DNA of 64,000 nt. Source: Tubiluchus corallicola (Eukaryota; Animalia; Priapulida). Position numbers and translations under genes: made by a program. Shown here in pieces: positions 50,854-59,415 of the stretch; position 1 is the first letter of the stretch; each line of letters opens with the position of its first letter. The stretch spans positions 1-64,000 of the forward strand of contig JAQGDQ010000375.1 of the NCBI GenBank assembly GCA_030141605.1, read 5' to 3'. A model generated the notes under the pieces. It was not told where the DNA came from. It searched no databases and saw only the letters and a list, made by a program, of their open reading frames with translations.

Positions 50854-53800
50854 CTATGCACAACGGCAATATTGAACAGTTAAGGGTCCAAATATTCCGT
50901 TACAAACAGGTACTGTGGGTCTTGGAAAGCAGTCAGTGTTAAACAACACAGGTCTGTGTTTTAATTCTGGTACGAGAATTTCTCCTCCAATTCCAGCCAC
51001 TTCTTTCCTTCTGGCAACCCTGATGTATCCGTCTTCGCCAAAATCTTCACCCCACCTGGAAAACATCAAAGTATGTTTTTTTCGAGAAGTAGTCTTACCT
51101 AGAAAATTTTATTGGATTTGGCCAGTGTAGAATCGTTTAATTTGTGCTGCTTGTTTTTTATACATTTGGCATATTCTAACTCTATCCCAAACCTAGCACT
51201 CTAAAATAGGACCAACACAATGAAGATGATTGTGACGTGGCACGATCTTGGTTTACTATAAAAGAATTACTGGCTTACTCCAAGGATGAGTTACTGAACC
51301 AACAGAGGTTTTTCAGTCGCATTTGGAGTTTACATTCCCCCTCTACCAGACAAACGGCCAAGATTTAGGTATTGAACCAAGGCGGCCACGTACCATCAAT
51401 ATGAAAGTTTGTATGTATTCACTCAGCCATGTAACCCGCCAATTTAAATGCAATTATTTCTAGCTGTAGTTTCAGTCCTAAATGCAATGCTTCAGTTATT
51501 TATGAATAATCGCTAAATGAAAGCAAATTTACAATATGCTCTTTTACAACTCTGAAAGAAAAGCAAATGAGCCATACGTGAATGATGCCAAAATGAATTT
51601 TCTCATTTTAGTCATCGATTTATAGTGGCTTTCACATTTGGTTTTTGCACCTAAACGGCTAAAGCTATTTTGATTTTTTTGTAATATCAAAAATATACTA
51701 CAAAAGTATAATCTCAAGATTATTATACAAATTCTTCTTGTTAAACTAAGAATGACTACAATTATTATCAGAAAGGAACAAAATTTTTGACAGTCTTCGC
51801 GCGAGTTGTCACACTATAGAATCGCCAGATATAAAAGGCAGACTCTATGCGTTTTGTTTTTACCACTTTTGCAAGAAATGATTTACGAATTTCGCTTGTC
51901 GAGTTAGTGCAGCCTGGAAATGATTTATGAATATTCATAAACAATTTGTTAGTAACAAAAACAATTTTGTTTATCAACGTATTGAAATAAGCAGAATTCG
52001 GTATTTTTTAACTTACGTTGGTCTTACAATCCAATAATCAATTGAAAAATATCGTGGGCCTGTAAAGAAGTTACAGTATTGCCAAAAATCGCTGTCGAAA
52101 CCCACCAAAAGCATCCAGGCTTGCGGCTCTTTAGGTATTGTGTTATCTGGTGCATAAAAGTCATCCACTACTCCTGCAAAATTAACAGAATGAATAACTG
52201 AGCAACATTTGGCATGTCTAAAATGCTTTTGCCAGCTTTTGAAAATGCAAACAGACATGTTAGAGATGGCTTATTCCGGCGTAGCAAGGAAAATTAATAA
52301 AGTGGTTCAAAAATCTCCATGTGCTGGTGTGTGCCTGGCATGGGCGTAATTTCTTCACACAAGAAACCAATCTAGAAGCCCTGGAATGCTTAAGTGTGTG
52401 TGCTTGACGCCTGACTCTGTGGTATCAAAGTTCAGGCCTGCCGCTGCAAGTGTAGTTTCTAATATACACTGGTCTCGCGGGTCTATATTTACTTTAATTC
52501 AATTCCGTCTATTTCTTTGCTTTTTTCGAATTTGAACAATACCCAAGGTCGGCACTAGGATATTTGACACTATAGACAAAAGTATTTTTAGCGCCCCCTT
52601 CCCCACGGTCCCCATTCCTAAAATTTAATTTTTGCTGTATATATTATAGTGTAATGGTACCCGTGTGTAAGACTTATACGTGTATTCTATAAGCGTGTAC
52701 TAATTAAGTATTAGTTAAAACTGTTGTTGATTGAGTTTTAAATTTAATTGATGATCCCGCTCATTGTGGGTCTTTAGGAGCGATCAAAATTTCTGCAATT
52801 TTTGCTGCACACTCTACATAAAGCACATTGTCTTAACTATATTTTCACTTAGCCTTTCCATCTGAAAAGTTTTTAATTCCTAGCTCCTCTTTACGATATT
52901 TCCATCTCACTAGTTCCATAATATGCATAATAATAAGTCTGGCCTGGTTGCAAATGTTTCGTTAGCGAATCTTTTTGCCCTTCAATATCCGCCAGCTTTT
53001 TTACGTTCGTATTCTATATTAATTCCTGACGGTTTCGATTTCTAATAAATGTTATTGCAAACTTCTCTCCTGCGCTGTGCATAAAATACAACCTATGAGT
53101 AGCAAAAGCAGGATAAGGCGCCAATAGTCTGAAATGATGTAATCTTGGAAAGTCAGGTAAAGCGAAAGTACAAAGTGTTTTGCTGCAGGAGACAGCTCAG
53201 TGCTGGCGTCGATGAATCATTCATTTTGGATGAAAATGAAACAGAAAATTCATTTCATTTAATTACTTTTGTGCACCTAAGTAATTGCACGTTATTATTT
53301 ATGTCAAACTTAAAAATTAAGGAATTCAAAAAATTGGCTCCCCACCCCAAATTTGACGCCCTAGGCAATTACCTAGTTTGCCTAGAGGTAAAGCAAGCCC
53401 TAGGCAATTGCCTAGTTTGCCTAAAGGCAAAGCAAGCCCTAGGCAATTGCCTAGTTTGCCTAGAGTCAAAGCAAGCCCTAGGTAATTGTCTAGTTTGCCT
53501 AGAGGTAAAGCAAGCCGTGGCCGTAGCAATGTTACAATGTTCGCAAACTTACCGCTTAGATAACTCTGCAGGATTTCAATGTTTATTGAAACTATCACAG
53601 GACCGCCCTTCATTAACTCATACAAATTAGCTTCACCACTATAAACTCCAAAATCTTCCATTGGCATGTATAACTTTTCATAGTCTCCATAATCTGCACA
53701 CTCTCCAGGCTACACAAATAAAGAAAATAGAGTAAAAAAAAAATAATCTTTTTTTAATGACAGCCTTATACACGTATTTCCCGATTGCAAATTTTAAAGG

Positions 53801-56800: not shown

Positions 56801-59415
56801 ATGGGTTTCTGTGAAGCTCCGAGGATACAGGAGGGATAGGGAGGGGGGGCTTGTTAAGTAAATTACTGTTACTTTATCGGCATTAATTAGCCGAGTTGGA
56901 GGTTACTACATTATCGTCGGTAACTGGTTTTCATTACCTAGTTGGCAACGGGATTGATTAAAAAGCAAAAATAGTATTAATAATCACTCGTTTGACGTTT
57001 TGGATTGTCTATAGTTCATAATGTTTGCAAAAAACTTTGCTCAAGCACCGGGCGTGATGAGTATTTATATTGCACAGTAACCAGATGAAGTCACGAGCGC
57101 GCTTAAGCGTGAAATAATGGAGACTTAAAATTGATTTTATTAATTACACGAGACGCTTATCACAATTTTATTGTTGAAACTTTCTAACATTTTTCTTCCG
57201 AGAAACTTGGCCTTTCCTTTAATATAGTATATACGCATTTTTATTATCACATGCAACAATTTACATGAGTTAGTTTCTCTTCAAAAAGTTTTTTTGATCA
57301 ATTCTCCCTTGAAGTTTCAATTTCAAGCGATGGAACTCTCATATTAACAGCTAGAAAACTTTTTTATCTTCAAATTTGCTTGGAAATTGTAAATATTTGA
57401 CAGTAAAATGTGAAGCTGTTCTAATCACCTGGTTGCGAACTGGAGGTAAACAAGGTCTTATTTCATTCGAGTAAGGATCAGTACCATTGAAAATTCTATA
57501 GTCCAGGTACGCACACGTTGTTCCAAATGTTCCAAGTTCATAAAATCTTGGTTGTATTTGCCGTTTGCTTCGACGATTTGCCCGTCTTTCCGGATCGATG
57601 AAAAACCCGCCCATCTCTGCCACGAATTCTTCAGTTGTCTAAAATAATTAGCAGTTTTGCACAACTACAACAGTAACGACAACAAGAACTGTAGCAACAA
57701 CAGCAACAACAAGAGTAGCAGCAGCAGCAGCAACAACAACAACAACAACGACAACAACCGCTATTACTACTACTGCTGCTGCTGCTGCTGCTGCTGCTTG
57801 CTGCTGCTGCTGCTGCTGCTGCTGCTGCTGCTGCTGCTACTACTACTACTACTACTACTACTACTACTACTACTACTACTATAGCAACGACAACAAGAAT
57901 TGCAGCAACAACAACAACAGCAAGAGCAGCGCCAAACTAACACCAACACCACCACCACCACCACCACCACCAACAACAACAACAACAACAAACAACAACG
58001 TTTTAAAAGCGTTACACTGTCGCGGCTACATCTCAGTACCGCCTACACAATAAAAGAAATTAGTACTGTCTAAGAAATAAGGATAAATTTATAATAAAAG
58101 AACAAGAAAAGAATAAAGTTACACCGTTCATAAAAAGCAGCACAATGACATACAAGATAAGACAGCGGTTGGTACTACGGCTGCTATGTTTCTTATTGCA
58201 TGTACCTACTACTGCTTTCACTATCACAACTGCTACGTGTGTTACTATTGTTGTTGCCTTTATCTGCTATGCAATTGTCGTTGCTGTTACTGCAATAGCT
58301 GTCGTCATCGTTGCTAATGTTGTTGTCGTGTCCGTTGTCGTTTTTGATGTCACTGCCATACACCGATACATGATGTCATTTTTTTGCTGCATGATCGATT
58401 TTTAGCACCAACTGTTATCACAGAATTACCAATTCCATGATTTTGAGATATTATTACTACGTCTGTTTAGGGCAGCAATTGAAAAATTTGTTTAGCTTGG
58501 ACATTTACCAAATCAGAAAATTCGTTCACACCCAGTGTGAAATTTGACTCTCCTGCTTCAAACTTTCGGTTATGTTCTTTTATACGTTCTAGGCGGGTCA
58601 TATAAACTGGTTCTTTCTTGCTTACTTCATCTTCTGTAAGGTCACCACCTAAAACAGTAAAAATAAAGAAGATTAATTTTGTGAGAACTTCAGTATAACT
58701 TACTGCAATAAATTTACCTTCATGAAATAATAGTTTAGATTCTTCAGCGCCTTAATAAGGAAAATTCCAAACAACAGCAAAAACGTCACAGCAATAAAAT
58801 TATAGTCAGTCAATGAGTAAGTGAGCTAGTCAGCTAGTTAGTCAATCGACCAATTAATTGGGTCAAGCTAGAGTTGTTTTATTACAGCTAGAATTGTCAT
58901 TGTCAGCATTTTGTAGCACACGCATGCAAATAAAAAACAAACCAGTGCTTACCGTACTTCAACTCCATATATCTTCTGTAATTTGGATGATCGACGTCTT
59001 TTGGTGCTTTGGGCTTTCCTTTACCTCTGCGTCGTCTAACTCTGTCCTGTTTTCTTGGTCTACCTTCGCTGTCTTCATATTCAATTTGATAGAAGTTCTT
59101 GAAACCCGGACCTCTTTTTGGCTTTTCTTTCTTTCGTTTCTTTCCAGCGCTGCTTTGACCAATTTTTCTTGATTCTCCCCTCCTTTGTCCTGGCCCTTGT
59201 CTAGTTGCTGTTTGACCGCGATTGTTACTCCTATTTTGTCCTTGTACTTGTCCAGTTGCTGATTGGCTACGATTATTGCTCTTGCTTTGACCTCGACCTT
59301 GCTGACCTTGCTTTTGGGGCGATTGAGAACCACGTCTTTGTTTTTGACAGTCGTTGCCCGTGATGAACACACAAATTATTAACAAGAATAGCGACAGTAG
59401 ACTGAATAAATTCAT
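50854..59415 (-). CDS. Secreted papain-family (C1A) non-peptidase homolog with I29 propeptide, about 532 aa, 8 coding exons
   Basis: Exons (high-low) 59415-58953, 58648-58509, 57638-57429, 56226-56194, 55341-55105, 53709-53553, 52173-52017, 51055-50854. GT-AG, in frame, total 1599 nt. Signal peptide MNLFSLLSLFLLIICVFITG. I29-like EVSKKEPVYMTRLERIKEHN...FTLGVNEFSDLTTEEF. Mature-domain motifs LDYR, PPVRNQGECNSSWAYTA, PSAQEIIDC, YP, GPVIVSI, LLVGF, YWIVRPTWGEDFGEDGYIRVAR. Confidence 0.88.
53358..53517. repeat. 39-bp minisatellite x4 with internal palindrome
   Basis: Unit CCCTAGGCAATTGCCTAGTTTGCCTAGAGGTAAAGCAAG. Confidence 0.92.
53866..53989. repeat. (GAT)n repeat
   Basis: Direct read. Confidence 0.9.
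57661..57999. repeat. Compound trinucleotide microsatellite (CAA/CAG/CTG/CTA/CAC)
   Basis: Direct read; sits about 20 bp from a splice acceptor of the C1A gene. Confidence 0.95.

Follow-up and report, generated by a model that had tools for sequence, protein, structure and literature searches.

Background

Can a protein of the papain family lose its entire active site and still be the working product of an intact gene? This question is raised by a locus in the 64,000-nucleotide stretch (here called the window) that opens contig JAQGDQ010000375.1 of the priapulid Tubiluchus corallicola. The gene lies on the minus strand between 59415 and 50854, and a preliminary description had proposed for it a secreted, non-enzymatic papain-fold protein which founds a new pseudo-protease family. 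Our analysis confirms that the gene is intact, that it is spliced in relatives, that all three triad residues are lost and that the protein is under purifying selection; its secretion and its non-enzymatic role we infer. The protein forms a clade with two proteins of Priapulus caudatus. No described family was found to which it belongs, but dead relatives exist in Priapulus and whole-triad loss is not unique to it. Judged by sequence comparison, the novelty is a distinct clade of C1A pseudo-proteases with a distinct layout, within an already known kind of dead C1A protein.

Gene structure, splicing and selection

The window protein was obtained by joining the minus-strand exons by their coordinates and translating them. 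The model has eight exons and 1599 nucleotides, encoding 532 amino acids with a single terminal stop, and all introns run from GT to AG with matching phases, in agreement with the earlier statement of eight exons, canonical splice sites and neither frameshifts nor internal stops. Exon 1 (59415-58953) encodes a signal peptide predicted by hydropathy (residues 1-20, 59415-59356) and a basic extension rich in Arg, Lys, Gln and Gly (residues 24-150, isoelectric point 11.7, net charge +28). Exon 2 (58648-58509) encodes the core of an I29 prodomain of the cathepsin L type, and exon 3 (57638-57429) the end of the prodomain and the start of the mature domain. Exon 4 (56226-56194) is a micro-exon of 33 nucleotides reading GECNSSWAYTA, exon 5 (55341-55105) contains the L-domain helix and the SxQExIDC motif, and exon 6 (53709-53553) the GPV strand of the mature domain. 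Exon 7 (52173-52017) carries the former His position, a hairpin arm and the former Asn position, whereas exon 8 (51055-50854) contributes the C-terminal strands, a C-terminal tail of 35 residues with four Cys, and the stop codon.

Exon 5 as the sole query retrieved one protein, P0001, among 27 candidates. P0001 comprises 383 amino acids and derives from a 1406-nucleotide Logan contig in public data. It aligns without gaps to residues 150-532 of the window protein, differs from it at 21 of 383 positions (94.5% identity) and is colinear over all seven junctions, including the micro-exon, which reads alike with its Ser; its triad positions are likewise Ser, Ala and Pro. Since the aligned span takes about 8 kb of genomic DNA in the window, a spliced transcript is the simplest reading of the contig, which confirms seven of seven junctions at the protein level. 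In addition, a second run (X2), which comes from a related organism and is labelled 'RNA?', gave contigs about 92% identical (99 differences in about 1160 exon letters). Among the joints listed, these contigs splice out introns 1, 2, 5, 6 and 7 where the model predicts it, so that both junctions of exon 2 are included; an X2 contig covers codons 58 to 154 approximately. X2 and P0001 depart from the window protein at different residues, showing that three versions exist. A further run, X1, is possibly the source sample and was left out of the independent support. From about codon 58 onwards, the transcript check that had been proposed for the eight-exon model came out in its favour in relatives.

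Between X2 and the window, exons 2-8 show 63 differences; the 34 listed comprise 25 synonymous and 9 non-synonymous ones, and the ratio of non-synonymous to synonymous differences per site (pN/pS), taken over all of exons 2-8, is 0.095 (p 6e-11). For the basic extension, 30 of 36 differences are listed, 12 synonymous and 18 non-synonymous, with a pN/pS of 0.40 (p 0.014). The gene is thus under purifying selection, with a pN/pS of about 0.1 in exons 2-8. Nothing was found to suggest a pseudogene in decay, or an active protease whose model is mis-spliced; either is next to impossible and is refuted at the level of the relatives' transcripts: the frame is open, spliced relatives carry the same dead site, pN/pS is low, and the window holds no alternative catalytic exon. 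When the whole window was scanned for motifs in six frames, no alternative exon that fits the model carried CxSCW, HAVxxVGY or VKNSW, and tblastn with six C1A proteins found no second C1A locus within it. The observations named in advance as fatal to the original proposal were not made: the dead site persists in the transcripts, pN/pS lies well under 1, and no family already described turned up as orthologous.

Some minor features of the gene may be mentioned here. A T-run followed by CAG (59429-59440, minus strand) strongly resembles an acceptor site, ends 13 nucleotides ahead of the start codon outside the transcript coverage, and is a candidate for the end of an intron in the 5' untranslated region or for a trans-splice acceptor. 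A tandem duplication of 51 bp (59184-59281, 1.9 copies, 78%) lies within the basic extension of exon 1, so that this extension grew partly via an internal repeat. Intron 6 contains a 39-bp tandem repeat (53358-53516, 4.1 copies), and in intron 5 many X1 contigs stack at 54228-54815 (summed depth >2000), a stretch that is likely a dispersed repeat.

Active site, domains and fold

Active C1A peptidases possess a Cys-His-Asn triad. In the window protein the catalytic Cys is replaced by Ser277 (AGC, 56211-56209, exon 4), the His by Ala432 (GCC, 52120-52118, exon 7) and the Asn by Pro465 (CCA, 52021-52019, exon 7), exactly as had been described. Likewise, the translation reads ECGAE in place of GCxGG (exon 5, Ala329-Glu330 at 55203-55198) and the oxyanion Gln271 is retained (57431-57429, exon 3).

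The Peptidase_C1 domain, the papain fold and the I29 prodomain place the protein in the cathepsin-L-like branch of the C1A papain family. The profile search that had been suggested found both domains in Pfam, with 89.8 bits for Peptidase_C1 (PF00112, cut-off 20.7, E 3.6e-25) and 41.3 bits for Inhibitor_I29 (PF08246, cut-off 24.4, E 1.9e-10); exon 2 alone matches PF08246 with an E of 6e-08. An AlphaFold2 (AF2) model of P0001, built on 108 sequences, reached a predicted local distance difference test (pLDDT) of 82.4 and a predicted template modelling score of 0.86. The structural comparison, also suggested earlier, returned the papain fold, with procathepsin K as the top match (Z 33.1, root-mean-square deviation 2.1, 293 aligned); cathepsin K and L zymogens scored Z 32-33 versus 26-28 for cathepsin B zymogens, and Der p 1 was merely 19% identical in the structural alignment. 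The model predicts that the procathepsin-L fold is retained, with a long beta-hairpin between the strands that once carried His and Asn. The Cys-rich tail has low pLDDT and is not resolved.

Relatives of the window protein

A phmmer search of 1.84 billion representatives clustered at 50% identity gave 3638 matches at E 0.001. Among the 150 best, which were the ones listed, the top non-self match was P0002 (E 9e-59), and P0009 ranked ninth (E 4.5e-25) after multi-domain or multi-I29 proteins. Both are RefSeq models of Priapulus caudatus with consecutive accessions: P0002 is XP_014663361.1, automatically named 'crustapain-like', and P0009 is XP_014663360.1, a fragment automatically named 'thiol protease SEN102-like'. 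P0002 is 36% identical to the window protein (E 8e-79 in a local search) and has Gly, Gly and Ser at the triad positions. It shares a basic extension, here of Gly and Lys, the I29 prodomain, an RTKR-Q site, both hairpin inserts described below and the loss of a C-terminal disulfide Cys; unlike the window protein it has neither the Cys-rich tail nor a glycosylation sequon at the catalytic position, and its triad residues are different ones. In P0009, Thr stands where the Cys would be, and the sequence ends ahead of the His. Its N-terminus is absent, and it stops three residues beyond the position of the exon 6/7 junction of the window gene; it is likely a truncated gene model sharing that intron position.

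In a tree of 59 rows the window protein, P0001, P0002 and P0009 form one clade with a support of 99 (starred), and under a mixture model with 28 rows, the window protein being left out, the clade has 99/97 (starred). Membership of the window protein in this priapulid clade is also seen in the shared inserts, the furin-type site and the dead active site. Vertebrate cathepsin-L-like matches fall outside the clade in the mixture-model tree; testin, a mammalian cathepsin-L paralogue with Ser in place of Cys, was not among the aligned rows. P0001 and P0002 pair with each other and leave P0009 outside (94/90, unstarred), suggesting that duplication and catalytic loss are older than the split between the window species and Priapulus. 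No RefSeq copy of the window gene itself occurred among the matches; together with the Priapulus relatives and a cuticlin-domain neighbour, this makes a priapulid different from the RefSeq species the probable host.

Neither Priapulus protein came up in a word-index search with P0001, and a three-sequence profile missed P0002. As both were recovered only by the exhaustive phmmer search, searches of the former kinds cannot bound the family. An ESM Atlas search with P0002 gave generic C1A/I29 clusters only. No description of the family or of its Priapulus accessions was found in title listings of the open-access literature, where gene tables in supplements could list the Priapulus proteins.

Triad loss in other C1A proteins

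For comparison, 105 other aligned matches, mostly single-domain, were taken from 155 gathered. Cys, His and Asn are present in 86, 97 and 102 of these 105, respectively; 85 have a complete triad, 13 lack one residue, four lack two and three lack all three. Several beetle and springtail matches are among those lacking one or two. The three triad-less proteins are VDP65676.1 of Echinostoma caproni (P0054, S/L/T), a Logan protein (P0032, S/W/G) and P0145, which is doubtful, its reading being perhaps an alignment slip; the first two are cathepsin-L-like and independent. A common origin with the priapulid proteins was considered for all three; they lie outside the starred clade in the mixture-model tree. 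Whole-triad loss therefore recurs in unrelated matches, and the SMIPP-Cs discussed below have lost Cys and His. What distinguishes the window protein, as far as can be read from the alignments, is its membership in an old clade with its own architecture rather than the loss of the triad.

Within the clade the triad residues vary (S/A/P in the window protein and P0001, G/G/S in P0002, while in P0009 the Cys position holds T) while surface features persist, so that selection does not act on a new catalytic centre. The window protein is very probably non-catalytic.

Features shared by the clade

Ahead of the mature domain, all three stored clade proteins have an RxKR or RxRR site followed by Gln; in the window protein this is the furin-type site RSKR of exon 3 (57572-57561), and Rx[KR]R occurs in the linker of 6 of the 105 others. 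Two further RxRR sites stand at residues 125 and 127 of the exon 1 extension. The pro-region and the mature domain bear opposite net charges (+25/-26 in the window protein, +16/-19 in P0002). The charge difference between pro-region and mature domain is 50 for the window protein and 42 for P0002. The value of P0002, whose extension is predicted to be disordered but is shorter and less basic (net +7), is the highest of 101 length-filtered stored proteins, the next being 34.

Around the former active site several positions have changed, which we number by papain (Gly23, Gly65-Gly66). The residue after the former His is Trp or Tyr in the clade (Trp433, 52117-52115, exon 7) versus Ala, Gly or Ser in 90 of the 105 others. 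Gly66, present in 99 of the others, is Glu or Ala, the pair Gly65-Gly66 reading Ala-Glu or Ala-Ala except in P0009, which retains Gly-Gly; Gly23 is Asn in every clade member. In the window protein this Asn275 (56217-56215, exon 4) forms an N-x-S sequon with Ser277, and an N-x-S/T sequon stands at the catalytic position in P0001 and P0009 also (two of the three stored clade proteins) but in none of the 105 others.

There are two inserts. The segment from D to Q is 24-25 residues long versus a median of 13, and contains the predicted clade-specific hairpin of exon 3 (57494-57450); the spacing from His to Asn is 33-34 versus a median of 20, equally long in only 2 of 105 others, and contains the predicted arm of exon 7 (52099-52037). 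Both inserts are predicted to be beta-hairpins in the models of P0001 and P0002, the aromatic-rich His-Asn hairpin with a pLDDT of about 90. Finally, the clade lacks one C-terminal Cys that is present in 104 of the 105 others (Ala486, 50997-50995, exon 8).

Comparison with known papain-fold proteins

TINAG proteins are cathepsin-B-like and have an N-terminal region of the somatomedin-B type. The window protein has a different layout: exon 1 gives no somatomedin-B-type Pfam match up to E 1, I29 is present, and zymogens of the cathepsin L type come first in the structural search. TINAG and TINAL act in cell-matrix contact (PMC10318531), and TINAG/TINAGL1 resemble the window protein as inactive papain-like proteins of the extracellular matrix. 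Silicateins share the cathepsin-L-like fold and a Ser at the nucleophile position but keep His165 and Asn185 (PMC6233156), neither of which has a counterpart in the window protein. The earlier separation from both groups thus stands.

The SMIPP-Cs of Sarcoptes scabiei are similar in being excreted animal C1A pseudoproteases that act by binding: they bind calcium and join fibrin polymers (PMC7815109), and they show Cys>Ser together with His>Gln or Leu (PMC5956821), a combination of Ser with a replaced His which is also that of the window protein. They differ in being a multicopy parasite family derived from proteases like the mite group 1 allergen, and in that some change the oxyanion Gln, which the window protein keeps. 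No SMIPP-C occurred among the 20 named matches, and none was directly aligned or included in the trees; within this scope, the nearest named relatives being those of Priapulus and the low identity to Der p 1 argue against descent from mite allergens. Soybean P34 (PMC2292165), a dead papain-fold protein of storage vacuoles, and SPE31 (PDB 2b1m) are alike in having the fold without the catalytic Cys and a non-enzymatic role, and unlike in being vacuolar plant seed proteins of separate origin. Falcipain-2 carries a 14-residue hairpin between the His and Asn positions which binds haemoglobin (PMC3317066). Falcipain-2 and -3 thus have a beta-hairpin of similar size and a protein-binding exosite at the same place; they are active enzymes, however, and as the window insert is aromatic-rich and no sequence likeness has been shown, the analogy is one of site only.

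Possible function

We favour, at even chances, a secreted, convertase-processed extracellular binding or building protein of cuticle, matrix or body wall, or of a gland secretion. An extracellular binding role of dead C1A proteins has precedents in the SMIPP-Cs (PMC7815109) and in TINAG/TINAL (PMC10318531). The signal peptide would take the protein into the endoplasmic reticulum, where the I29 prodomain may act as a folding aid, and the disordered basic extension would neutralise the acidic mature domain, or anchor it to polyanions, until the cut at RSKR. Trp433, the pair Ala329-Glu330 and perhaps an N-glycan attached to Asn275 would shut the old cleft; with the cleft shut, binding would be relocated to the outside surface, where the aromatic hairpin could be an exosite comparable to the arm of falcipain-2, and calcium or cationic partners could bind to the acidic surface. 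A more specific version, rather unlikely as a whole, is that of an old priapulid-specific pseudo-protease family, duplicated before the Priapulus split, with a sealed active site (in some members via the sequon), a falcipain-like aromatic arm and a self-neutralising polyampholyte that the furin cut converts into a component which assembles in cuticle, lorica or adhesive. A homodimer prediction for the mature domain (score 0.04, mark 0.32) is evidence neither for nor against self-assembly.

Several points weigh against this picture. The call of the signal peptide rests on hydropathy, and codons 1-57, with the start and the signal peptide, lie outside the coverage of P0001 and X2. The closure of the cleft is read off alignment columns, and its changes are not uniform, P0002 having no sequon and P0009 keeping Gly65-Gly66. 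The AF2 models draw on alignments of active cathepsins. An acidic mature domain, moreover, is not confined to dead proteins: among the active matches one is more acidic than P0001, and several come close to it. The family is based on two named proteins of one species, one of them fragmentary, plus unnamed near-copies. In addition, a cuticlin neighbour about 27 kb away is no evidence of a common function.

Among the alternatives, the protein could be a carrier for its own I29 propeptide, from which a convertase frees a cathepsin-L inhibitor of the Crammer or CTLA-2 kind, for example at moulting, the dead domain being a scaffold or a cystatin decoy. In both P0001 and P0002 the I29 score exceeds the Pfam cut-off, Crammer is matched as well (2l95, E 1e-8), and the furin-type site is conserved at the end of the prodomain. 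We nevertheless consider this unlikely: the mature domain, three times longer, shows strong conservation and bears clade-specific surface inserts, a decoy requires an open cleft whereas the residues lining it have become bulkier, and stand-alone multi-I29 proteins without a dead domain exist (P0008, P0013). Also unlikely, and marginally more so, is a role in body-fluid defence or wound sealing, in which the dead domain binds calcium or clot-like polymers and the cationic extension frees antimicrobial peptides at its RxRR sites. The SMIPP-C precedent (PMC7815109) and the highly basic, faster evolving extension with its further convertase sites would suit it, but the one copy in the window gives no sign of gene expansion and the gene none of positive selection, the shorter and less basic extension of Priapulus does not fit, and SMIPP-Cs are a separate mite lineage acting on the host.

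A yolk, egg-coat or storage protein similar to soybean P34 is improbable. The precedent itself (PMC2292165) and the appearance of 2b1m in the fold search speak for it, and a glycosylated, convertase-processed precursor would be suitable; however, specific surface inserts have stayed strongly conserved across a distance of about two substitutions per site, which is beyond the needs of bulk storage. Catalysis of another kind, by Ser277 in the manner of silicateins or by surface templating of minerals, is very improbable. It could draw on the Ser at the nucleophile position and the retained oxyanion Gln, but other members of the clade have Gly or Thr in place of this Ser, the positions of the lost His and Asn hold residues that vary from member to member, and no serine cluster precedes the His strand. 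Priapulids are not known to have a silica skeleton, which we count against it as well. The variation of the triad within the clade, together with the retention of His and Asn in silicateins, leads us to reject a silicatein-like Ser enzyme, even though silicateins with a mutated triad retain the ability to polymerise silica from one substrate (PMC6233156). As for the list of roles in the preliminary description, nothing favours venom or biomineral over matrix or binding.

The clade represents an independent and apparently old re-use of the papain fold without catalysis in a free-living animal, with design features that would be testable, namely the closed cleft, the exosite arm and the charge switch triggered by a convertase. 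If it does provide a component of cuticle, lorica or glue, it would be one of the earliest named examples of a lineage-specific structural protein in priapulids, which serve to infer the body wall of the ancestral moulting animal. Furthermore, two RefSeq entries bear protease names although the papain mechanism is not open to them. The interest is limited by the known occurrence of dead C1A proteins in several lineages (SMIPP-C, P34, TINAG), and this animal does not lend itself easily to experiments.

Other features of the window

The cuticlin neighbour is a gene of the cuticlin/ZP-domain type with exons at 18181-23869 on the plus strand; CUT_N matches 18181-18390 with an E of 6.4e-07, and further candidate exons at 21464, 22377, 23224 and 23747 have no notable Pfam match. 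On the minus strand, 27968-38793 contains exons of a pyridoxal-dependent decarboxylase (PF00282, E 2.4e-09), which from its motifs we take to be GAD/CSAD-like. A tandem repeat at 39724-40678 yields long repetitive open reading frames in several frames, which are probably non-coding.

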